From positions 1 through 44,589 of the forward strand of contig RKRO01000509.1 in NCBI GenBank assembly GCA_007571355.1: a stretch of 44,589 bases of DNA, written 5' to 3'. Under the pieces are notes generated by a model. It saw nothing but the letters and a program-made list of their open reading frames with translations. It was not told the DNA's origin and made no database searches. Below, one piece after another: positions 1 through 44,356 of the stretch. The stretch's first letter is position 1. Every line of letters starts with the position of its first letter. A program made the translations under genes and the position numbers. The stretch is from Candidatus Poribacteria bacterium. Its GTDB lineage: Bacteria; Poribacteria; WGA-4E; WGA-3G.

Positions 1-34
1 ATTCTAAGATATTGGTTTAACAAAGGAGCGTAGA

Positions 35-832
35 ATGTTTTACGAATTATCACGTCTACCCATCGGAAAGTTACAAATGGTCTTTGTCGTTGTTGCGGTG
101 ATCATAGCCTTCGCAGCTTCAACGGATGCCGATCTCAGCGACCCGACGCTATCTGTCTACTATAGTTTTGACGAGGATGGCGATACCGTCAAAGACGGCT
201 CCATTTACGGTAACGACGGGACAATTGAAGGAAAATCTCAGCGAGAAGATGGTGTTATCGGCAAAGCTGTTGTTTTAGAACCACAAACGTGGGTGAACTT
301 AAACGGACCGGAATTTGAAAATGCGCCGGTTGAAGGTTTCACCCTCGCTGTCTGGATCAATCATAACGATTCCCCCGAACCCCAGAGCATCTTCGACGCG
401 ATTGGCACTGATCACGCGAGCGGTCTCTTCCATGTGGAAATCCGTCCCGCCGGCTTCAGATGGTTTCATAGAGATGGTGCCCAGGCAGAAGTTTTCAATA
501 TCAACCCCGGCCCCGTTATTGACGGTGGGGAGTGGGTCCATTTCACCGGGACTTATGATAGTGGTAGCGGTGACACGAAAATCTACGTCGACGGGAAAAT
601 GACACACGAGGCGAAAGGTAAAGGCGAACTTTCAGACAATTGGGGAGTCTCGGCAGCGATCGGACACCATAAGAACGGTCGCTGGTTCGATGGCCTGATG
701 GACGAGTTCTATATTTTCGGTCGCGCCCTATCCGAAGATGAAATTAAAGAGGTAATGGACGGTGAATTTTTGGCGGTAGAACCGGAGGGTAAAATCGCCA
801 CAACTTGGGGCAGTCTTAAAACGCGACGCTAA
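35..832 (+). CDS. secreted or anchored LamG (Laminin_G_3 / concanavalin-like jellyroll) domain protein
   Basis: 265-aa ORF. AAGGAG lies 6 nt upstream of ATG 35. Hydrophobic N-terminus (VFVVVAVIIAFAAS). The body and the tail GLMDEFYIFGRALSEDEI look like LamG-type lectin-fold domains. Confidence 0.75.
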   Translation: MFYELSRLPIGKLQMVFVVVAVIIAFAASTDADLSDPTLSVYYSFDEDGDTVKDGSIYGNDGTIEGKSQREDGVIGKAVVLEPQTWVNLNGPEFENAPVEGFTLAVWINHNDSPEPQSIFDAIGTDHASGLFHVEIRPAGFRWFHRDGAQAEVFNINPGPVIDGGEWVHFTGTYDSGSGDTKIYVDGKMTHEAKGKGELSDNWGVSAAIGHHKNGRWFDGLMDEFYIFGRALSEDEIKEVMDGEFLAVEPEGKIATTWGSLKTRR

Positions 833-860
833 GATTACCGATTGAATCGCGAACGAAGCG

Positions 861-899
861 GCTCGAACACAGTGTTTTTGTGTGTCTGAGCCGTTTTTT
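861..899 (+). terminator. rho-independent terminator candidate after the LamG gene
   Basis: Imperfect hairpin GCTCGAACACA...TGTGTGTCTGAGC (861..891), followed by CG and a T6 run (894..899). Confidence 0.5.
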
Positions 900-907
900 G
901 TGCTGAA

Positions 908-1813
908 CTATCGATGCGGCGCATATTCCCAATCGAAACGTTGCCGTCCGTAAAGTGTGCCGTTAATTTCGGCCTGGTGGCAGATGAGGCACCGGTGAGC
1001 CTCGGTAACACCGTGCAGTTCATGCGCCAACTGAATCTCTTCTGTGTTATGCACGTGGCATTTGAGACACGTATAACTCCGGTAATCATTATCGGCGTAG
1101 ATGGCGACTTGATCTGCAGCCTTCCGAACGTGGTAGGTGCGTCCATCCTCGGTATCGGTAACCGTCCACGCATTTCCGGGTGCCTTGATTGAGATGGACG
1201 CGGTTGTCGGTACCCTGCTTTCATTTTGTAAGAACCACCAGTGCAGGTCTTCAGGGATAGTCGCCGACGCATCCAAATCCTGTGGAAAGGTTGTACGGAC
1301 ATGGAACAGCAGCCGTTCAGGCGTATGACACCTTGCACACGGTACATCGTGGACCTCGGTGAGCGGGAAGAATTCGTCGTGTTCTAATTTCTGTTGGCCG
1401 TGAAGTACGATGCTAATCAGCAGAATCGGTGCAAGGATGAGGTGGCATCGGAGCAGAATCTGGCGCGTCTTGCGAGTTGTTAGACTCACAGCGATCCCAG
1501 TACCTAAATTCAATAGCGCGAGTAGGAGCGTCAGCCATGAGTGCCACACGAGCGGTTGGAACGCGGAATGGTATAGCACCAAGCATAACCCCATGGATGC
1601 AAGGCGTTGATGGTATTTCAGCCATGTTTGGCGACTGCCCCACCGAATCCAGCGACTTCGCAGAAGATAGAGGCTGGCAATGACAATAGCAATAGCCCCG
1701 ATAATGCTAATCGTATGTCTCGCCTCCCCGAAACTGCCCGCCTGATAGATACATAGCCCAGAAATAACAGCGGCACCAACAATACCGTGTCCAATTTGGA
1801 TAAAGACTTTCAT
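908..1813 (-). CDS. membrane-bound multihaem c-type cytochrome (polytopic N-terminal domain fused to a tri-haem domain)
   Basis: 301-aa ORF with ATG at 1813. The N-terminal half has 4-5 hydrophobic helices with conserved His (cytochrome b / DUF4405-like appearance). The C-terminal half has three CxxCH motifs (CARCH, CLKCH, CLICH). Confidence 0.7.
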   Translation of the reverse strand: MKVFIQIGHGIVGAAVISGLCIYQAGSFGEARHTISIIGAIAIVIASLYLLRSRWIRWGSRQTWLKYHQRLASMGLCLVLYHSAFQPLVWHSWLTLLLALLNLGTGIAVSLTTRKTRQILLRCHLILAPILLISIVLHGQQKLEHDEFFPLTEVHDVPCARCHTPERLLFHVRTTFPQDLDASATIPEDLHWWFLQNESRVPTTASISIKAPGNAWTVTDTEDGRTYHVRKAADQVAIYADNDYRSYTCLKCHVHNTEEIQLAHELHGVTEAHRCLICHQAEINGTLYGRQRFDWEYAPHR

Positions 1814-1924
1814 GCTATCAGTTTAGCATGGATATGAAGTGGAGGCAAGAAAAATCTCATCGCTATATGAAATTTGGGATAATGCAAGAGGATACCTGCG
1901 AAAGCGAAGAAGGTGCAAGCATAT

Positions 1925-8879: not shown

Positions 8880-9284
8880 TCAAACGAGTTGAATGTACCC
8901 CATCTGTGTGCCATCTCCTTTTCGGAGTTCGCCTCTGATGATACGTGTATAGCCTCCGTTCCGATCTTGGTATCGGGGCCCGATGTCATCGAAGAGTTTA
9001 CGTAGCACAAAATGCTTGTCAAGGGAGGCAGCTGCCTCACCTCTTCCGGGCTTGTAATGCAAATCTGACCCGTAGAGCATTTTTGCGGCTTGCCGACGTG
9101 CCTGCAGGTCACCCTGTTTCGCGAGCGTAATCAGTTTTTCTGCGACGCGACGGAGTTCTTTGCACTTAGGCAGCGTTGTCCGGATCTGTTCGTGTTCAAA
9201 TAGCGCGGTGGCTTGGTTACGAAAGAGTGCCTTTCGATGGCTTGATGTTCGTCCCAATTTCCTGCCGCGTTTTCTATGACGCAT
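8880..9284 (-). CDS. rplQ: 50S ribosomal protein L17
   Basis: Starts [30 protein letters not shown]. Ends in TGA. Confidence 0.95.
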
Positions 9285-9317: not shown

Positions 9318-10337
9318 TTATATTGGTGGCTGCAACGGCACTTGTGCCATATCATCTTCGCTGATGTTCGCGTCGTCCATATCGTCTAAGTCCATTCCGA
9401 GGGCAAGTCCCATGTTGGCGAGTTGTTCTTTGATTTCGTTTAGCGAAGTGCGCCCGAAATTCTTGTATTCCAACATGTCCTTTTCCTCTTTTGTGACGAG
9501 TTCGCGTATGGTTTTAATGTTTGCGGTTTCGAGGCAGTTGCTGGCTCGGACTGAGAGTTCAAGTTCAGAGACAGGCTTTGCTAAATAACGATTTCGCCGT
9601 AGTTTTGCCTCATCAATTTCGGGTTCCGGTTCAACGTAATATTCATCAAATTCTGTAAAGAGATCAAACTGTTGTAGTAAAATGGTAGCCGCGCGGATGA
9701 CAGCCTCTTTGGCTGTGATCGTTGCATCTGTCCAGATTTCAAGGTTGAGTTTATCGAAGTTCGTCATATCGCCGACGCGCGTTTCTTCGACCCAGAAATT
9801 GACTTTCTGAACGGGTGAGAATTTGGCATCCACTGGAATTAGGCCGATGTCCTGTCCTGAAGGTCTATGTTCTTCAGCAAGCGAGTATCCTCTGCCGGTT
9901 TGCGCATGAATTTCTATATCTAAACCCTCACATTCGTCGAGTGTGGCGATGTGCTGGTCAGGGTTGATGATCTCAACGCGTGCGTTTGGACGGATATCGG
10001 CGGCGGTGACTTCACCGGAACCTTCCGCTTTCAAGGTCAGCTTTACCGGTTCATCTATTTCTATCTTAAGTCGGATCTCCTTGAGATTGAGAATAATCTG
10101 TACAACGTCTTCTACGACTCCTGGAATCGTGGCGTATTCGTGTTTTACCTGCTCAATTCGAACTGACGTAATCGCTGCCCCTTTGATTGAGGAAAGGAGT
10201 ACTCGGCGTAGTGAATTGCCGAGGGTCATTCCAAATCCGCGCTCGAAGGGTTCAGCGGTGTATTTTGCGTAGTCGGGCCGTAAGGTTTGTAGATCGGTTT
10301 TTAGTCGCTCAGGCATTTCCAGTTCGGATCTTATCAT
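9318..10337 (-). CDS. rpoA: DNA-directed RNA polymerase subunit alpha
   Basis: 339 aa. Contains EPFERGFGMTLGNSLRRVLLSS and a C-terminal domain with LELSVRASNCL. GGAGGAA SD. Confidence 0.97.
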   Translation of the reverse strand: MIRSELEMPERLKTDLQTLRPDYAKYTAEPFERGFGMTLGNSLRRVLLSSIKGAAITSVRIEQVKHEYATIPGVVEDVVQIILNLKEIRLKIEIDEPVKLTLKAEGSGEVTAADIRPNARVEIINPDQHIATLDECEGLDIEIHAQTGRGYSLAEEHRPSGQDIGLIPVDAKFSPVQKVNFWVEETRVGDMTNFDKLNLEIWTDATITAKEAVIRAATILLQQFDLFTEFDEYYVEPEPEIDEAKLRRNRYLAKPVSELELSVRASNCLETANIKTIRELVTKEEKDMLEYKNFGRTSLNEIKEQLANMGLALGMDLDDMDDANISEDDMAQVPLQPPI

Positions 10338-15848: not shown

Positions 15849-15893
15849 GCTATTTCTCCAAATGCGTTGAGAGCTATGTACAACCACAAAACT

Positions 15894-16295
15894 TTACCAG
15901 ACGTAACATAACACCTCGCCGCCGATCTTCTCCTTGCGGCACTCCGGTGTGGTTTTTATGCCGTTGGATGTTGATAAAATAGCGACACCGAGTCCGCCGT
16001 AAACACGTGGTAGGCTATCAGATTTAGCATAAATCCGCCTTCCCGGTTTACTAATACGTCTGAGGTTTGTGATGACCTTCTCTTTTTTGGTATTTCCGTA
16101 TTTCAAATAAATTCTTAAAATCCCCTGTTTCCCATCATCAAGCAGACGATAGTTTCGGATGAAACCTTCTTCAGTCAAAATTCGCGCTATTTCCGCTTTG
16201 ACTTTTGAAGAGGGGATTTCAACGCGTTCATGTCCTGCCATGTTGGCATTGCGGATACGTGTCAGCATATCTGCAATCGGATCGGTCATCGACAT
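15894..16295 (-). CDS. rpsH: 30S ribosomal protein S8
   Basis: Starts [20 protein letters not shown]. Confidence 0.96.
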
Positions 16296-25424: not shown

Positions 25425-27548
25425 TTACGTATTATGATTCGTTGATGAAACGATGTCCTCCATTACGTTTGTGGGGACTTCGTTGTAATGTGCAAACTCC
25501 ATAGTGTAGTTTGCCCTACCTTGTGTAAGTGATCTAAGGGTTTTGACGTACCCAAACATCTCTGAGAGGGGGACATCAACCCGGATAACTTGAATTCGAG
25601 ATTTCGCCTGCATTTCTGTTTCACGTATCTGTGCACGACGCGCATTCAAATCGCCAATAACTTTACCGAGGTATTCGTCTGGGACGATCACCTCAACTTT
25701 CATAATTGGCTCAAGCAATAATGGGGTCGCACGTTTCAAGGCATCTTTGAACGCCATTGACCCTGCAATGGAGAACGCCATTTCTGATGAATCCACTGCA
25801 TGGTATGAACCATCAACCAACTTCACTGCGACATCAACGACCGGGTAGCCGGCAAGAATCCCAACGTTCATAGCGTTTTCAATGCCTTTTTTCACTGCCG
25901 GGATGTATTCTTGAGGAATTACGCCACCTTTGATTTCGTCGATGAATTCAAAACCACTCCCTTTTTCAAGCGGTTCAACTTCAATCACAACGTGACCAAA
26001 TTGACCTCTACCCCCTGATTGACGTACAAATCTTGCTTCAGCATTGACAGGCTTGCGGACAGTTTCTCGATAGGCAACTTCCGGGTTACCTACATTCGCT
26101 GAGACATTAAACTCGCGCACGAGTCTATCAACGATAATTTCAAGGTGAAGTTCACCCATACCTGACAATAAGGTTTGTCCGGTCTCAGGATCCTGATGAA
26201 CTTTAAAGGTTGGGTCTTCTTCAGCGAGTTTAGAGAGGGCGAGGTTAAGTTTGTCGATATCGGATTGCGTACGGGGTTCAATTGCAATGGACATTACTGG
26301 AAGCGGGAACACCATGTTTTCTAAAGTGATATGCGCCTTCGGATCACAAAGTGTGTCCCCCGTTGAGAGGTTTTTTAAACCGATTGCAGCAGCAATATCG
26401 CCAGCGTAAACAGCTTGTATCTCTTCCCGCTTGTTGGCGTGCATCTGCATCAAGCGGCCTATCCGTTCGTGCTTTCTCGTTTTGGTATTGTAGAGCGTAT
26501 CGCCTTTTTTAAGTACACCGGAGTAGACCCGTAAATAGGTGAGTTTACCAACGTGCGGATCTGTCATAATCTTGAACGCTAACGCACAGAACGGTTCGTT
26601 CTCGTTCGGATGGCGAGTGATCTCTTTTTCTGTTTTCGGGTCAGTTCCAACGATTGGGGGCACGTCTGTCGGTGCAGGTAGATAAGAGACGATTCCATCT
26701 AAGAGCGGTTGGACACCTTTATTCTTTAGAGCGGTACCGCAGAGAACAGGTACAATATTACCAGCGACCACGGCGTTGCGGATTCCTGTTTTAATTTCTT
26801 CGGGCGAAATTTCGACACCGTCTAAGTATTTTAGCAAGAGGCCTTCATCGCAATCGGCGATAGCCTCTAACATCTGATCGCGATATTCGTGTGCCATATC
26901 CTGCATCTCTTCTGGGATGTCTGTCTCTTGGATAACGGTGCCATCGTTGCCAGCATTTGTGCCAATGTTCCAAATTTGACCTTTCATAGAGATGAGGTCT
27001 ACAATCCCTGTGAATTGTTCTGCTGAACCGATTGGCAGCTGCACTGGAATTGCGTTGGCACCGAGCCGCCCTTCCATCATTTCGACAGTGCGGAAGAAGT
27101 CAGCACCGGTTCTATCCATTTTATTAACGAATGCGATCCGAGGGATTTCGTATTTATCTGCTTGCCGCCATACGGTTTCGGATTGTGGTTCAACACCGCC
27201 GACAGCGCAGAAAACAGCGACTGCACCGTCAAGCACGCGAAGTGAACGTTCAACTTCTACGGTAAAATCAATATGCCCCGGTGTATCAATAATGTTTATG
27301 TGATGTTTTTTCCAGTGACATGTCGTTGCGGCACTTGTAATCGTGATACCGCGCTCTTGCTCTTGAACCATCCAGTCCATAGCAGTTGTACCATCATCTA
27401 CATCACCGATTCGATAGAGTCTACCGGTATAATACAAAATGCGTTCAGTTACGGTAGTCTTGCCGGCATCGATGTGTGCCATGATACCGATATTTCGCAT
27501 GTGGGGCAGTGCTAAGCGTTGTGGAATGCTATTTTTCGTATCTGCCAC
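25425..27548 (-). CDS. fusA: elongation factor G
   Basis: Contains [20 protein letters not shown] and NKMDR. I placed the start at GTG 27548 (AAGGAG 10 nt upstream), giving 707 aa. The ORF-track extension to 27815 would overlap rpsG and was rejected. Confidence 0.95.
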
Positions 27549-27612
27549 GGTTGAACGACTCCTTTTTAATTTTACGGATGTATATATTTCGGCGGGAACC
27601 GCACCTACACTT

Positions 27613-28083
27613 TTACCAACGATAATGCGCAAAAGCGCGGTTGGCTTCCGCCATTCGATGTTGTTCCTGTTTTCTACGGATCGCGCCACCTTCGTTACGC
27701 GACGCTTCAAGTATTTCACCGGCAAGGCGTTCTGCCATACGTCTTTCACCCCGCGCACGAGCGGATTGAATAATCCACGTGAAAGCCAAACGTTGTTTCC
27801 GTTCAGCCTTGACATCTACGGGAACTTGATAGGTCTGGCTACCTACACGGCGAGGCCGAATTTCCAGCACCGGTTTTACATTATTAATCGCTTGACGGAA
27901 CACGGTGAAACCTTCTTCATTCGTTCGGTCTTCAATGATCTTGAAACTTTCATACAAGATGGCTTGGGCGGTACTCTTCTTACCATCCAACATGAGGTTG
28001 TTGATAAATTTTGATACCAGTTTACTGTTATAAGTTGCATCAGGACTGACATCCCGTTTACTAATGTTTCCACGCCTCGGCAT
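27613..28083 (-). CDS. rpsG: 30S ribosomal protein S7
   Basis: 156 aa, starting [15 protein letters not shown]. Confidence 0.96.
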
Positions 28084-40032: not shown

Positions 40033-40398
40033 CTACAGAGACAAAGTGTGTCGTGGTGCCACCTGTTGTCTCAATAATCGCTTTGGGGGCATCTTCGAAT
40101 CACGAGGGAAGATCGGACCAAGCAGGCGACACAATTCAAGAGGAACAGACGGGGGCCAGCCGAGCGGACAGAATAGGTTGTTGTCTATGATGGTGCGGTA
40201 GAAGTCGCTTGGTTGGAGCGCGTGTCCGGTGTCTGCCCCCGGTGCTGCTGTTGGACGCACTGCCTCGCTCTGAACACCCGTGACAGGCACGGCGGCCTCC
40301 ACCTTCGCATTCAAAGAACGATACACACCGATAACAATGAGTATGAGAAACGCGCCCGCTATCACAAGACAACAGGCACGTCGGTTGAAATGTAACAC
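40033..40398 (-). CDS. hypothetical single-pass membrane protein (last gene of the envelope operon)
   Basis: 121-aa ORF with a GTG start and weak SD. One TM helix (CCLVIAGAFLILIVIGVY). FYRTIIDNNLF loosely resembles the motif after the TM helix of GspC/PilP-type proteins. Confidence 0.4.
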   Translation of the reverse strand: MLHFNRRACCLVIAGAFLILIVIGVYRSLNAKVEAAVPVTGVQSEAVRPTAAPGADTGHALQPSDFYRTIIDNNLFCPLGWPPSVPLELCRLLGPIFPRDSKMPPKRLLRQQVAPRHTLSL

Positions 40399-40422: not shown

Positions 40423-41484
40423 TTACTCTGAAGAATGCCAACCATCCGGACTTGATGAGCAATCGCCCCATTCACTTGTGCAGATGTGGTAGGTCACACC
40501 GCAGTGGATACAGGTCACATCATCCGGATACCAACAGTAGTCCTCTGGACAGCCATCCTCATCCCCTTCATCGGGCGGATCGTTTTCGTCCTCGTCCTCA
40601 TCATCCTCATCATCGTCCTCATCACAAGACGAACACCCCTCCGTGCAATAACTACAATCGGGCGTGTTGTCTACAGGATCACTCGGACTGCTGCCCGAAC
40701 CACAGGAATCGGGATGCCCAGAACACGCATAAACCGACGCTTGATTGCAACTCGAACAGGTCGCCAGTAACGCATGACTCGACGGAACACCATAACAATT
40801 CCAATACGTACCGCCCTCTTGACAATACATATTCGGACAGGTCACATAATGGGCTGTCGGTGAGGAAACTCCGGTTTGTTTGCAAAGACTACAAACGTTC
40901 GTTTCTTTCACTTCCCATGACCCTGAATCGCTTGTCGTATGTGTATACGAGGGATCCGACGTGTCATTATGGACAATCCAGTCTCCTCCTGACCATCTGG
41001 CGAGTTTTCTAACGGCTTGACCGCTCGCGCTCCAATTGTAAGTGCCAACATCATCGGACCAATCGGAAACGTTATTAACAGTGAACGAGAAGTCGTCGTT
41101 TTCTGCCGTATCGTACATCGGAACCCCCAGCGGATATAAGATCCCCATGTAGCCAATCTCCTCTGTCGGTGCCTCCCCATACTGGGGGTCTGCCATGTGA
41201 TTCTCGCCGTTGATCGTGATGGATGTGATTTTGAAATCTATCCAACCGAGTCCCATTGCCGTTCCACTTATCGTCATCGTAACGGGATCGGGGTGTGCGG
41301 GTTCCACGGTGTGGTTTTCATGGATATAATACGTATACGTCCCTGATGCATTTGACGATATCGACGGACCACTACTGATCGCTAAATACGGATCGGGTGC
41401 ACCGATGATCGGGATGCCCCAAACATAGAGACCTACGCAAAGAAATACGAAAAAGAGCGTGCACAGTAAAATCAATGTTTTCAT
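40423..41484 (-). CDS. secreted Cys-rich, highly acidic protein of unknown function
   Basis: 353-aa ORF. GGAGG lies 6 nt upstream of ATG 41484. Signal peptide present. The C-terminal 150 aa has 27 Cys, including CSLC, CSSC, CSYCTEGCSSC and CIHC, plus an acidic run CDEDDDEDDEDEDENDPPDEGDEDGC. Confidence 0.65.
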   Translation of the reverse strand: MKTLILLCTLFFVFLCVGLYVWGIPIIGAPDPYLAISSGPSISSNASGTYTYYIHENHTVEPAHPDPVTMTISGTAMGLGWIDFKITSITINGENHMADPQYGEAPTEEIGYMGILYPLGVPMYDTAENDDFSFTVNNVSDWSDDVGTYNWSASGQAVRKLARWSGGDWIVHNDTSDPSYTHTTSDSGSWEVKETNVCSLCKQTGVSSPTAHYVTCPNMYCQEGGTYWNCYGVPSSHALLATCSSCNQASVYACSGHPDSCGSGSSPSDPVDNTPDCSYCTEGCSSCDEDDDEDDEDEDENDPPDEGDEDGCPEDYCWYPDDVTCIHCGVTYHICTSEWGDCSSSPDGWHSSE

Positions 41485-41505: not shown

Positions 41506-42345
41506 TTAATCATTCAAGGGTCGGGGTCTTGGAACTTTCCCACCAATGCCCGTGCCAATAAGATGCCCGAGTCCAAAGTCTACAAGGGCTTGATCGAATG
41601 CCTCTCTTGAGCGCTGAGCGACTCTGCTTCGTGCGGCTCTCCCGGATGCAGCGGCTGTAACGAGCGGATACGGCCCTTGGGCAGCGTCTACAATCCGATA
41701 CATTTCAGCGCGGATCTCTTCCAATTCTGCAAATTTCCCTGCTGCATGAAGACCGCGCCGTTGCATTCTCAATTCCTTATATCTTCGCGCTTGCTCGGGG
41801 TTGGGTGCGAATGCGGTAATCGTATGGACTTGGATGTAAGGCTCACCAATCTTGTTGATGACAGGTTCACCATTTGCATCTCGTTTGACAACCCAGGCAT
41901 CATCCCAGATATATTCATAGCCTCTCGGCGGTGGGGGAACACCTGCTTTTTCAAACCACGCCGACATCGCCCGTTTCGCCTCTGCTGGCGAGAATTGCGA
42001 CAGATATTTCGCAAGGAACGACCCCGGACGCGGTGCCAAATCACCTGCATCGTCTGCTGGAGGTGCCGGTGTTGTCTGCGGTGCCTGTGCGGCCGCTACC
42101 TGTTCTTGCGCCCCGTCGTGCCATGTCCCATCCGCATGGGTATGTCCGCCTTGTTGCGCTTCAGGCGTTTCCTGCACAACAGGCGATTCTGTTTTCGGTT
42201 TTTCCGGCGGTTTCGCTAAGGGTTCTACGGGTGTGTATGTCACAATCGGTTCGGGCGGGGGTTGTGTCGCGAGGTAATAAATCCCCACACCTGCAATCGC
42301 CACAAGGAACACCGCGAGCGGTATCCAATACTTTTTGATAAACAT
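41506..42345 (-). CDS. signal-anchored protein with a Pro-rich linker and a His cluster (GGHTHADGTWHDG)
   Basis: 279-aa ORF. AGGAG lies 6 nt upstream of ATG 42345. One N-terminal TM helix. Confidence 0.65.
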   Translation of the reverse strand: MFIKKYWIPLAVFLVAIAGVGIYYLATQPPPEPIVTYTPVEPLAKPPEKPKTESPVVQETPEAQQGGHTHADGTWHDGAQEQVAAAQAPQTTPAPPADDAGDLAPRPGSFLAKYLSQFSPAEAKRAMSAWFEKAGVPPPPRGYEYIWDDAWVVKRDANGEPVINKIGEPYIQVHTITAFAPNPEQARRYKELRMQRRGLHAAGKFAELEEIRAEMYRIVDAAQGPYPLVTAAASGRAARSRVAQRSREAFDQALVDFGLGHLIGTGIGGKVPRPRPLND

Positions 42346-42356
42346 ATTTCGCTCCT

Positions 42357-42641
42357 TTATTTGACAACTTCTGCACCGAACCCCGCATCTGCCAACGCGG
42401 ATATCAGCACATCACTTTTAACGTTACTTTTTACCACAACTTTTCGGTCTAAAACCGAGACCGAGACAATCTCTAACTCACCTTCAAGGTTTTCAAGTGC
42501 AGACCGCACTTTTTCGGCGCAGCCCGGTCAGTCCATCTTTGGGACACCCAACGCTATCACTTCTCGCGTGGGACTGCACCCGATACACAGCACACAGGCG
42601 AGCAAGAACAACACAAACGATATACGGGTTAGGGGTTCCAT
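42357..42641 (-). CDS. HMA (heavy-metal-associated) domain lipoprotein with in-frame TGA at the first Cys of MxCxxC; candidate selenoprotein (UPGC)
   Basis: Manual translation gives MEPLTRISFVLFLLACVLCIGCSPTREVIALGVPKMD[TGA]PGCAEKVRSALENLEGELEIVSVSVLDRKVVVKSNVKSDVLISALADAGFGAEVVK. GGAGG lies 7 nt upstream of ATG 42641. The TGA is at 42530..42528 and the TAA at 42359..42357. It is missed by the ORF track because both halves are under 60 aa. Confidence 0.6.
42495..42511 (-). promoter_or_regulatory. SECIS-like stem-loop downstream of the in-frame TGA
   Basis: The minus strand reads AAGUGC-GGUCU-GCACUU and starts 16 nt after the TGA. As I recall it, the loop and 3' arm (GGUCUGCAC) match the apical E. 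coli fdhF SECIS string. Confidence 0.45.
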
Positions 42642-42835
42642 GCCGGCACCTCCCACATCTCACACGATGCCTGCAATAACGGGCTCACCCGCTCACAATC
42701 GGGCGGTTTCACATCGCGGATGCATGGGGTGCGCGCGGAACACTCGGACATCGCTGCACGTGCGCGGTATGTGAACACCACCGACACGCCGATAACCCCA
42801 CACAACAAAACAATCAAAAACAATGATCGGAACAT
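42629..42835 (-). CDS. small membrane-anchored protein with four Cys
   Basis: 68 aa counted from ATG 42835 (GGAG 8 nt upstream): MFRSLFLIVLLCGVIGVSVVF...SECSARTPC...PDCERV...ASCEMW. The stop overlaps the start of the HMA gene. Confidence 0.55.
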   Translation of the reverse strand: MFRSLFLIVLLCGVIGVSVVFTYRARAAMSECSARTPCIRDVKPPDCERVSPLLQASCEMWEVPAWNP

Positions 42836-42963
42836 CGATGCACTCCTAAAACGGTTGAGCCCAGCTGTCGGAGGTATGCAACAGCGAAAAAGAAGACGCG
42901 GCAATTCTCCGTCAGTGAACTACAGTCCTATAGCATATAACAAAAACGGCTGTCGTGCAACAC

Positions 42964-43012
42964 AAAAAACCCGCTATGCAGTGCCTTGTCTGTGACAAAG
43001 GCAGCACGCGGG
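42964..43012 (-). terminator. terminator-like compound hairpin with U6 inside the operon leader
   Basis: The minus strand reads CCCGC-GTGC-TGCCTTTGTC-ACA-GACAAGGCA-CTGCATA-GCGGG followed by TTTTTT. It lies about 130 nt upstream of the first CDS. Confidence 0.45.
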
Positions 43013-43073
43013 AACGAAAGGTTTCCAGAACTATACGAACCTTGTGAAGTAAAATACTTAACGCGTGTGAAGT

Positions 43074-43083
43074 GGGGGGGGGG
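43074..43083. repeat. G10/C10 homopolymer tract in the leader
   Basis: Ten consecutive G on the plus strand. Three overlapping short minus-strand ORFs cross it. Confidence 0.95.
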
Positions 43084-43290
43084 CCAAGGGCCACAACAAA
43101 ACAGGAGCAGACACGCTACACTCAGTAGACGCAAAAATACCTACCAACGCACTTATGCAAACTTCTCCTGAAGAACCCAAAAATCTGATGCCCATTACTA
43201 CCACTCCATTAATATCGACCTCAGTTGTATATCGGGGTTACAAACCCCTCCTACAAGCGTTTCTCGGAAAGATAGAAACTTATGGAATTA

Positions 43291-43319
43291 ATTATACCCA
43301 CGCAAAAGGGGTTTGTCAA
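43291..43319 (-). promoter_or_regulatory. perfect consensus sigma-70 promoter (TTGACA-17-TATAAT) driving the envelope operon
   Basis: On the minus strand, TTGACA is at 43319..43314 and TATAAT at 43296..43291. Confidence 0.65.
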
Positions 43320-43556
43320 GTTTAAAATTTAAAAAAGCGTTTTTTTGGGGATTCATGTTTTACACAAAAATTATTCTCGATTATTTATCAAATTCACGCC
43401 GTTTTTTGCACTTGATAAATAATTTTCTCATTTTTTTCGCAAAAACGTGCAAAAGTGCATCCGAAAATGTGTTTAAGTGAATCATTGTCATTTTTTAATG
43501 GCGATGATATCCTAATACCGTTTTATCGCGGTAGAGAGAAAAAGGAGGAAATTGTT

Positions 43557-43589
43557 ATGTTAGCAAACCAGAGGAGGTGTGACACTTAG
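43557..43589 (+). CDS. possible 10-codon leader peptide (MLANQRRCDT)
   Basis: AAGGAGG lies 7 nt upstream of the ATG. Tandem AGG AGG Arg codons. The stop falls inside the first palindromic element. Confidence 0.3.
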   Translation: MLANQRRCDT

Positions 43590-43624
43590 TGTTACGCCCT
43601 TGTGGTGTGACACAAGTGTCACAC
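43577..43624 (+). promoter_or_regulatory. paired GTGTGACAC-type palindromic elements (operator or alternative RNA hairpins)
   Basis: GTGTGACAC-TTA-GTGTTAC at 43577..43595 (imperfect) and GTGTGACAC-AA-GTGTCACAC at 43605..43624 (perfect 9+2+9). Confidence 0.5.
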
Positions 43625-43632
43625 GCTTTGGA

Positions 43633-43671
43633 AAGGGGCGGGGGGCTGAAACCCCTCTGTCCCTTATTTTT
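43633..43671 (+). terminator. strong rho-independent terminator/attenuator
   Basis: 13-bp stem AAGGGGCGGGGGG / CCCCTC(T)GTCCCTT, loop CTGAAA, then ATTTTT. Confidence 0.75.
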
Positions 43672-43739
43672 GATAGGTGCCGTTTTTTTACCCTGAAAAC
43701 AGCATCCGCCAAATTTTCATGGCATATTTTTCTATCTTT

Positions 43740-43748
43740 TGGTATACT
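43740..43748 (+). promoter_or_regulatory. extended -10 promoter candidate (TGGTATACT)
   Basis: TGn plus TATACT, with no good -35 box. It is followed immediately by the palindrome TACACTT-AGAA-AAGTGTA at 43755..43772. Confidence 0.35.
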
Positions 43749-43847
43749 ATCCGGTACACTTAGAAAAGTGTAATCTTTGCCAACATGTTGTTAATTTTTC
43801 AATCCTGCTAAACTACAAACAGAGACAAAAAGGAGGAGGTACCTATT

Positions 43848-43931
43848 ATGCTACGTTTGAACCACGCTACACTTCATCTAAAGACATGCAGTCCACGGCG
43901 ATGGTGCCTCTGCCCGTTATCGACGATTTGA
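43848..43931 (+). CDS. possible 27-aa Cys-containing peptide (MLRLNHATLHLKTCSPRRWCLCPLSTI)
   Basis: Strong SD AAGGAGGAGG 8 nt upstream of the ATG. No other support. Confidence 0.3.
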   Translation: MLRLNHATLHLKTCSPRRWCLCPLSTI

Positions 43932-43981
43932 TTGAAATGGCATAGGCACAGTCGCCTCACACGTGAGGAGTCGCTCTATCT

Positions 43982-44356
43982 ATGCCCAAATTTAATCCTG
44001 AATTTTGGGAAATTCCGGTACCCCCGGAATATTTCGATCAGTTTACGACAGAAGATTATCTTTGGTATCGAGCACCTGATGACGGATATACCATAGCCCG
44101 TCGTCTCAAACGTCAAGCGGTCTTAGAACAAATTCATCAGATTATCGCAAACGACCTAACCCACCGCCAAGCCGAGTGCGTCCAACTTTACTTCTACCAA
44201 GGCAAGACCCAAGAAGAGATTGGCTATATTCTTGGCATCTCCCGGCGTGTTGTGAGCCAACACCTCTTCGGTATCACACGAAACGGGAAACAGATAGGCG
44301 GCGCGATTAACAAGATCCGCAAGATGTGCCGAAAACAGGGAATAGAATTTCCTTAG
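43982..44356 (+). CDS. stand-alone sigma-70 region-4-like HTH protein
   Basis: 124-aa ORF. The C-terminal LTHRQAECVQLYFYQGKTQEEIGYILGISRRVVSQHL matches the sigma-4 HTH pattern. No region 2 is present. The GAGGAG SD lies in the hairpin CCTCA-CACG-TGAGG (43955..43968). Confidence 0.65.
   Translation: MPKFNPEFWEIPVPPEYFDQFTTEDYLWYRAPDDGYTIARRLKRQAVLEQIHQIIANDLTHRQAECVQLYFYQGKTQEEIGYILGISRRVVSQHLFGITRNGKQIGGAINKIRKMCRKQGIEFP

Follow-up and report, generated by a model that had tools for sequence, protein, structure and literature searches.

The window analysed here is the whole of contig RKRO01000509.1 (44,589 nt; assembly GCA_007571355.1) from a Candidatus Poribacteria bacterium, and coordinates refer to it unless they carry the label of a related locus in another assembly (L001, L002 and so on). 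On its minus strand, positions 42641..42357 very probably hold a genuine, unannotated selenoprotein gene, judging by comparison of the sequence with its relatives: an in-frame UGA is predicted to be read as selenocysteine (Sec) in the UxxC metal-binding motif of a small exported protein with an HMA (heavy-metal-associated) domain. An earlier note, made from the letters of the window, had drawn attention to this gene, and the positions it gave for the ATG, the GGAGG and its spacing, the TGA, the hairpin, the TAA, the AGGAG and ATG 42345 are all confirmed on the sequence. The features of the gene are as follows.

42357..42641, minus strand: predicted complete selenoprotein gene, 94 codons (37, then UGA, then 56) plus TAA, encoding a preprolipoprotein with an HMA domain
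42649..42654, minus strand: Shine-Dalgarno sequence GGGAGG, 7 nt before ATG 42641
42641, minus strand: start codon ATG, overlapping the last codons of the upstream 68-aa gene A
42576..42641, minus strand: signal peptide (residues 1-21) and lipobox Cys22 (C-I-G-C), with R6 in the n-region and a mean hydropathy of 3.2
42378..42545, minus strand: HMA domain, residues 33-88, from Pfam PF00403 and sequence matches in the PDB
42528..42530, minus strand: in-frame UGA, predicted selenocysteine residue 38, first ligand of the M-D-U-P-G-C metal loop
42519..42521, minus strand: Cys41 (TGC), second metal ligand of UxxC; the residue is invariant, the codon varies synonymously between TGC and TGT
42495..42511, minus strand: apical hairpin of a candidate selenocysteine insertion sequence (SECIS), stem AAGUGC/GCACUU and loop GGUCU; the stem begins 16 nt after the TGA and the loop 22 nt after it
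42471..42530, minus strand: 60-nt region from the UGA used for folding, which includes an alternative G.U-rich hairpin at 42520..42494 with loop CGAAAAA
42359..42357, minus strand: stop codon TAA, after 56 codons downstream of the TGA
42356..42352, minus strand: AGGAG before gene B, whose ATG 42345 lies 11 nt past the stop of the HMA gene

Read on the minus strand from ATG 42641, the gene is MEPLTRISFVLFLLACVLCIGCSPTREVIALGVPKMD-TGA-PGCAEKVRSALENLEGELEIVSVSVLDRKVVVKSNVKSDVLISALADAGFGAEVVK-TAA. A mechanical list of open reading frames (ORFs) breaks it into two pieces, ORFs of 42 and 50 aa. The start codon, the Shine-Dalgarno sequence, the positively charged n-region, the hydrophobic core and the lipobox Cys are conserved across the orthologues described below, all of which have GGAGG or AAGGAG at an equal distance from the ATG. 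A strict lipobox rule (Cys at 15-35, K or R within the first seven residues and a hydrophobic h-region, after the PROSITE pattern) is satisfied in six of nine orthologues; L011 departs from it by an Arg at -1.

With U read as C, the protein matches the Pfam HMA profile (PF00403) with E=1.8e-8 and 35.1 bits against a gathering threshold of 24.8, over profile positions 4-61 of 62. ScAtx1 is the best match in a sequence search of the PDB (E=6.6e-7), and MerP is also found (E=3e-4). The earlier note placed the TGA at the first Cys of M-x-C-x-x-C, and the alignments put it at exactly that column: it falls on the first Cys of CxxC in ScAtx1, in HMA4 and RAN1 (HMA domains of plant Cu-ATPases) and in MerP, and in Pfam HMA as well. 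Across the family the metal loop reads M-D-U-x-G-C. The gap-poor alignment to solved HMA structures suggests a beta-alpha-beta-beta-alpha-beta fold with the metal loop between beta-1 and alpha-1.

A sensitive homology search was run with the post-TGA half as query. A separate protein search gave only four relatives, all of them C-terminal fragments of 51-61 aa, and those with a named source come from Candidatus Poribacteria. Inspection of the DNA explains their length: they appear as short fragments because their genes are split at the same site, as in L001, where the NCBI annotation of the orthologue is a 51-aa hypothetical protein. Six more Poribacteria loci came from scanning a single genome of each species, and further orthologues were reached via the neighbours of the downstream gene B. 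The earlier note had left it to the homologues whether the Sec column would hold Cys or TGA. It is TGA, never Cys, in eight distinct sequences (the window, L007, L001/L002, L006, L004, L008, L009 and L011) drawn from NCBI metagenome-assembled genomes (MAGs), JGI metagenomes and Logan assemblies, and TGA again in the rearranged L010. One species has TAA at this column (L017-L020) and one has GGA (L014-L016); among the full-length copies compared there is no Cys codon. Every orthologue derived from an NCBI MAG belongs to Candidatus Poribacteria and, on the sequences compared, the family is restricted to this group, with no Cys-containing orthologue among the copies. The first part of the window (34-1854) shares 85% identity with another HMA-bearing contig; both findings place the window in Poribacteria. 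A metagenome scan yielded a single match, L013, an unrelated Cys-containing HMA protein at 31% identity, which was set aside.

Over 4,733 bp the window agrees at 99.87% identity with L028, an independent assembly from JGI whose HMA gene, TGA included, has the same sequence; an assembly or sequencing error is therefore excluded, and the possibility of an artefact that the earlier note had kept in view falls away with the same TGA in a second assembly of the same strain.

The reading frame is under purifying selection on either side of the TGA. Among the TGA copies the pooled ratio of nonsynonymous to synonymous change (dN/dS) is 0.35 upstream and 0.17 downstream, at a pooled proportion of synonymous differences (pS) of 0.54 and 0.45, respectively; the downstream ratio bears out the intact frame on which the earlier note had relied. 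The six codons that lead from the TGA to GTG 42509, the start chosen by gene callers, encode G/P-G-C-A-E/Q-x and vary almost only synonymously (GGC/GGG/GGT, TGC/TGT, GCC/GCT/GCG), and no start codon lies between the TGA and the GTG. Being constrained and without a start codon, this stretch is translatable only by ribosomes that pass the TGA, and since translation passes through the TGA, the TGA copies can be neither pseudogenes nor two-ORF arrangements. Of 41 columns at which the other six TGA copies all agree, the window copy departs at three, and each TGA copy alters one to three columns that are invariant in the remaining ones.

In every TGA copy the UGA is followed, with the loop at 22 nt, by the core GUGC-GGUCN-GCAC, that is, by a 5-nt GGUCN loop on an upper stem of 4-7 bp (outer pairs bring the stem to 5-7 bp). 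Folding the 60 nt under the constraint that this hairpin forms gives -11.5 to -16.6 kcal/mol; the constrained fold is also the unconstrained optimum in five of nine sequences, and the values for the TGA copies fall within the constraints for bacterial SECIS elements (bSECIS) quoted in PMC13188914. The codons GTG, CGG and GCA, which make up the stem and the GG of the loop, are synonymously invariant, as are 6 of 20 comparable codons elsewhere in the gene. As a measure of chance, the window contains 1555 TGA triplets, of which 34% have a SECIS-like hairpin of some sort behind them; for 5.9% that hairpin equals or exceeds this one in stability, and for 0.6% it has a stem of at least 6 bp under a loop beginning with GGU, as in fdhF. 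The hairpin alone is therefore only moderately specific; what decides the matter is that orthologues keep the TGA. Faced with the choice between Sec recoding and a recent nonsense mutation, the earlier note had leaned to recoding, and TGA conservation, selection, the hairpin and the independent assembly all support that preference.

TGA is an ordinary stop codon in this DNA. It ends 10 of the 46 long ORFs of the window; the earlier note had pointed to rplQ (8880..9284), and rpsK (S11), rplO (L15) and rplD (L4) end in the same way. A reassigned code in which TGA means Gly or Trp is ruled out by these ribosomal protein genes. As for the machinery for Sec insertion, counts by clusters of orthologous groups (COGs) in Table S4 of Slaby et al. 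2017 (PMC5649159) list SelA 2, SelB 1 and SelD 1 for Poribacteria bin70, SelA 4, SelB 1 and SelD 2 for bin44 (GC 47%, like the window), and SelA 2, SelB 1 and SelD 1 for the Poribacteria WGA-3G single-cell genome. A 2026 survey (PMC13582414) includes Poribacteria among the phyla with Sec-type group 4 hydrogenases. The published COG tables thus point to Sec machinery at the level of the phylum, rather than from the genome of the window itself.

Several observations weigh against the selenoprotein interpretation. The first concern the machinery and its other substrates. There is no tRNA-Sec in the window and nine loci and no sel gene in the 44.6-kb window or in ~250 kb of related loci, and a search of ~250 kb of Poribacteria DNA for other TGA-split selenoprotein genes gave 154 mechanical candidates, none of them convincing. 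The absence of Sec machinery is uninformative because so little DNA was sampled.

A second group concerns the signals within the gene. No compensatory change is found in either candidate fold of the region after the UGA, nor by RNAalifold, and no pair varies on both sides; covariation gives no support because the four core pairs never vary and the core sequences are too similar. The sequence set agrees just as well with the rival G.U-rich hairpin, whose GAANAG loop lies 12 nt past the UGA; this is the more stable fold in four of the nine sequences, the window among them. Because of its spacing and the identity of its loop with that of fdhF, we favour the GGUCN hairpin as the likelier of the two SECIS candidates. 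An Rfam search at gathering and permissive thresholds gave no SECIS family, only a chance small-RNA match with E=8.7; Rfam SECIS models are believed to be family-specific, hence this null is uninformative. The earlier note's proposal of the hairpin as recoding signal accordingly stands as regards its presence in all TGA copies and its agreement with the bSECIS constraints, and is weakened by the lack of covariation and by the competing fold. Much the same applies to the lipobox-like signal it described: the signal peptide with Cys22 is there, and the lipobox of the window is slightly atypical, failing the strict rule only by a Cys at -3. As to function, the metal specificity and the roles of the partners discussed below are things we infer.

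A third group comes from orthologues that have lost or changed the TGA, listed here with the relics.

L017:2780-2782, likewise L018, L019:761 and L020:251: TAA codon at the Sec column
L014:6001-6291, likewise L015 and L016: orthologue with GGA (Gly) at the Sec column
L007:9087-9242; L009:12799-12909 and 15857-15967; L010:10001-10240; L012:10004-10129; L003:9980-10186: truncated or rearranged HMA relics in tandem cassettes

The TAA copy is the most pointed of these. It is present as an identical gene in four independent assemblies of one species (L017-L020, among them GCA_026706025.1). The earlier note's recoded TGA holds in eight sequences; one orthologue has TAA instead. Hairpin, start codon and lipobox are intact in the TAA copy, and a single conservative change (V to I) is seen at 37 invariant columns. 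A tRNA-Sec with the usual UCA anticodon is unable to read TAA. Protein-level confirmation of recoding at other codons was reportedly obtained by Mukai and colleagues in 2016 for UAG and UGU only. A review (PMC10778597), citing Mukai et al. 2016, describes SECIS-directed recoding of UAG and UAA in some species with a tRNA-Sec of complementary anticodon. The TAA allele is either a very recent G-to-A nonsense mutation or a case of SECIS-directed UAA decoding by an anticodon-variant tRNA-Sec. That this species naturally inserts Sec at UAA under SECIS direction, and that the family is a Sec-obligate periplasmic metallochaperone in which no Cys form is tolerated, as the lack of any Cys copy and the decay of the sole sense-codon copy might suggest, is a reading that we consider unlikely.

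The GGA copy is degenerate. The 3' arm of its hairpin is mutated from GCAC to GCCC, and at 8 of the 37 positions that do not vary elsewhere the residue is replaced radically (three L-to-R changes, besides G to R, G to C, I to S and more). The earlier note had proposed to look at whether the hairpin occurs only together with the TGA; this copy without TGA has also lost the hairpin, although the whole gene is decaying there. The upstream gene A is missing as well in L014, and likewise in L015 and L016; the copy lies on a contig of 5.05 Mb (ENA ERZ25068762, ctg152769) that, with a name ending in '_c', may be circular. More generally, relatives have often lost the HMA gene or carry it in truncated or rearranged form (L003, L010 and L012, with relics in L007 and L009). 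Relic breakpoints lie at or near the TGA-hairpin region (at the hairpin in L007, just before the TGA in L010), a deletion of ~14 nt takes out the TGA in L003, and L009 holds two identical relics ~3.06 kb apart.

The alternative that survives best accepts passage through the UGA and changes only the residue: a SelB-dependent tRNA of the tRNA(ReC) type would insert Cys, or near-cognate tRNA(Trp) or tRNA(Cys) would read the codon at a low level, stimulated by the hairpin. Such tRNA(ReC)-like tRNAs, which recode UGA with a SECIS, occur in 13-17% of surveyed genomes (PMC13582414), the window contains no Sec machinery, and the evidence for translation through the codon is silent on the residue inserted. 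We nevertheless regard this alternative as improbable. For a Cys product TGC or TGT would serve at no cost, yet no copy has Cys and the copy with a sense codon is decaying; Trp at a metal-ligand position would wreck the site; and SelA and SelB are present in Poribacteria.

Still less probable is an arrangement in which the TGA is a true stop between two products, a 37-residue lipopeptide and a 50-aa protein initiated at GTG 42509. Gene callers do annotate fragments of 50-51 aa as hypothetical proteins, and the TAA of one species is what free interchange of stop codons would be expected to produce. However, the HMA domain spans the stop, and such a split would leave beta-1 and the metal loop detached from the remainder of the domain. 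The codons from the stop to the GTG are conserved as amino acids, with no start codon there, and no Shine-Dalgarno sequence precedes GTG 42509. Moreover, TGA is kept in eight of the nine stop-bearing lineages despite a pS of ~0.5. The weakest alternative, that the window gene is a recent nonsense pseudogene or its TGA a sequencing artefact, can draw on the frequent decay in relatives (the deletion in L003, the relic in L012, the degeneration in L014) and on a TAA allele in L017 that could itself be such a mutation, but is already largely refuted and the least probable of all, given an identical TGA in an independent assembly, a TGA common to eight diverged lineages in which dN/dS stays far under 1 before and after it, a window copy that alters so few invariant columns, and the implausibility that orthologous TGAs with a shared codon position and a conserved hairpin arose independently.

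We therefore return to the selenoprotein reading and propose the following course of events. Translation would start at ATG 42641 and would not terminate at UGA 42530..42528; by the known bacterial mechanism, the hairpin with loop GGUCU would recruit SelB.GTP.Sec-tRNA(Sec), placing selenocysteine at residue 38. Signal peptide and lipobox would direct export and lipidation at Cys22, and the mature protein of ~73 residues would be a membrane-tethered periplasmic HMA domain. In its M-D-U-P-G-C loop, one selenolate and one thiolate may bind a soft metal such as Cu(I), Hg(II) or possibly Ag or Cd, and the protein is probably a periplasmic soft-metal binder, to judge from its domain and export signal. 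The selenoprotein might then buffer the metal or pass it to partners, likely candidates being the exported products of the co-transcribed genes, namely A with its four Cys, B with the His/Asp motif and the Cys-rich C. Buffering or hand-off of a soft metal is the most economical proposal because Cu(I) or Hg(II) is the metal bound by its nearest relatives of solved structure.

The neighbouring genes that would supply these partners are the following.

42629..42835, minus strand: gene A, 68 aa, membrane-anchored or exported, with four conserved Cys (C-x6-C-x8-C-x10-C)
41506..42345, minus strand: gene B, 279 aa, membrane-anchored, translationally coupled via AGGAG 42356..42352
42106..42147, minus strand: His/Asp motif G-H-x-H-x-D-G-T-x-H-x3-H of protein B (residues 67-80), a candidate metal site
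40423..41484, minus strand: gene C, 353 aa, exported, Cys-rich in one region and acidic in its tail; it follows gene B in the same orientation

Genes resembling A lie upstream of the HMA gene or of gene B in other Poribacteria loci, and the MAG of L001 also holds an A-like gene directly before B. In several independent assemblies, L001 (~9650-9860), L002, L006 and L008, a CGCGTGTGTGT run that differs in length by 2 nt breaks gene A in two, and the gene is intact in L004 (1839-2114); a genuine frameshift, a programmed shift or phase variation could account for the break. The gene B family is found in Poribacteria only, with ~60 matches. In the motif of protein B, H70, D72 and H76 are invariant among 21 homologues, and at least 90% of them share G67, H68, G73, T74 and H80. 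A structural model of protein B (predicted local distance difference test score, pLDDT, 77) has a confident C-terminal domain, and a Foldseek comparison with the PDB gave nothing better than E=1.4. Pfam and NCBIfam have no match for proteins A, B and C or their homologues. No mer gene family (merR, merT, merA) was found by Pfam among the neighbours in the window, L001, L003, L004, L014 and L017, and no P-type ATPase is encoded within 10 kb in any locus. One clade has a sigma factor of the extracytoplasmic function (ECF) type upstream.

The cassette is not tied to the HMA gene. A-B cassettes without it are found in L021 and L029-L031, and multiple copies in L022-L027 (ENA ERZ25069191 / ERZ25068966), where the cassette consists of B, a 402-aa protein and a 343-aa helix-turn-helix (HTH) protein; five of the six places shown for this multi-copy B cassette are from one sample, two of them on a single contig. 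Since A-B cassettes occur without the HMA gene and in multiple copies, the predicted selenoprotein is an optional module within a larger family of uncharacterised envelope genes. The N-terminus of the gene C type reappears at rearrangement junctions in L010.

Some further observations concern the same surroundings. Downstream of the HMA stop and ahead of the ribosome-binding site of gene B, L001 (10157-10180), L003, L004, L008-L012 and L017 have a conserved 8-bp hairpin, CCGAURCA-GACG-UGUAUCGG, with z-scores of -3 to -4 and no U-run after it; it is absent from the window and from L007, where the HMA gene and B are tightly coupled. Downstream of gene C, a 121-aa ORF (40033-40398, minus strand) has no Pfam match and is 72% identical in nucleotides to L009:12368-12552 and L001:12631-12761. 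The gene at the latter position has a weak match to T2SSC (type II secretion protein C), and the A-B-C cassette may extend to the 121-aa ORF. Some 1 kb of the window upstream of gene A (42905-43980) has no long ORF on either strand, with a run of 9-10 C's near 43070, and a 124-aa protein beyond it (43982-44356, plus strand) consists only of a sigma-70 region 4 / LuxR-type HTH. Elsewhere in the window, an elongation factor G (EF-G) ORF of 796 aa (25425-27815, minus strand) has its GTPase domain from residue 106, and either carries an N-terminal extension of ~100 aa or has its true start downstream of the first ATG.

If the reading is right, an unannotated selenoprotein family is added to the prokaryotic selenoproteome, and the short list of proteins in which Sec probably serves as a metal ligand, not as a redox catalyst, is extended to an exported, lipid-anchored protein from a phylum of sponge symbionts that has not been cultivated. 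The sponge hosts of Poribacteria are said to accumulate metals. Gene callers split genes of this kind, and selenoprotein models do not yet cover them. The TGA, TAA and decaying GGA copies and the relics form a compact natural series for the role of Sec in an HMA site and for the tolerance of the SECIS; we consider the TAA allele and the Sec-only distribution the most noteworthy points.

In its candidate recoding signal, the gene is best compared with E. coli fdhF. The fdhF SECIS string that the earlier note had quoted proved exact in 5,413 E. coli genomes, and it contains GGTCTGCAC. Nine consecutive nucleotides are identical between the two hairpins, GGUCUGCAC, covering the loop GGUC and the 3' arm. 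The fdhF loop lies 18 nt after the UGA, against 22 nt in the Poribacteria hairpin, and the lower stem is not conserved. The SECIS of fdhF has a 4-nt loop and a bulged U, and the G and U of its loop contact SelB in E. coli; unlike it, the Poribacteria hairpin has a 5-nt loop and no bulged U.

Among proteins without Sec, the nearest in build is MerP (TIGR02052; PDB 1afi), a periplasmic Hg(II) binder and likewise a small exported HMA protein with a two-ligand loop. The match spans nearly the whole domain, but the ligands of MerP are Cys and Cys, the Poribacteria protein scores 26.7 bits against a cutoff of 92.55, and a mer operon context is absent. The metal loop of ScAtx1, T-I-A-C-E-A-C-A-E, resembles the M-D-U-P-G-C-A-E of the Poribacteria protein. 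The Atx1/CopZ proteins (ScAtx1, PDB 4a47, 1sb6) are cytosolic, Cys-only and partnered with P-type ATPases, and the scores are far below the family cutoffs, which also holds for the best NCBIfam match, the CopZ family NF047957. MerP has an ordinary signal peptide. A 'MerP' selenoprotein of the GOS survey does not serve as a precedent, since this fragment of 33 aa (GTUCQSG) is unrelated and shows no similarity.

The earlier note had thought an HMA-type domain with a Sec ligand unusual, which overstated the case, as NF041115, NF045683 and a UxxC P-type ATPase were already known. The UxxC motif of the P-type ATPase lies in its N-terminal HMA domain. Sec is likewise at the first Cys of CxxC in this cation-transporting P-type ATPase E1-E2 (ABB15669.1), there in a domain within a large, membrane-embedded ATPase and on the cytoplasmic side, whereas the Poribacteria protein is a predicted free-standing exported lipoprotein of 73 residues. 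The ATPase has featured in selenoprotein reviews since 2008; the reviews consulted have no Poribacteria entry and no HMA-named or MerP-type family. NF045683, a MerT/CopZ fusion-like selenoprotein, gives 17.1 bits against a cutoff of 375, and the Poribacteria protein, with 94 residues, has no MerT part. Closest in kind is NF041115 (UxxU_metal_bind), likewise a stand-alone small HMA-type protein with Sec in its metal motif, to whose profile residues 27-93 align over positions 4-72 of 74. It is counted as a selenoprotein family in PMC13188914 and PMC9312934, was formerly called 'putative mercuric reductase' and belongs to the Olavius symbiont set; the selenoprotein reviews consulted report no Poribacteria origin for it. 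NF041115 has two Sec (UxxU) against one in the Poribacteria protein (U-P-G-C), which at 26.9 bits against a cutoff of 95 is not a member. Far below every curated cutoff, with one predicted Sec, an export signal and a different phylum, the Poribacteria protein would therefore work as the known Sec-containing HMA proteins do and represents a new family among them.

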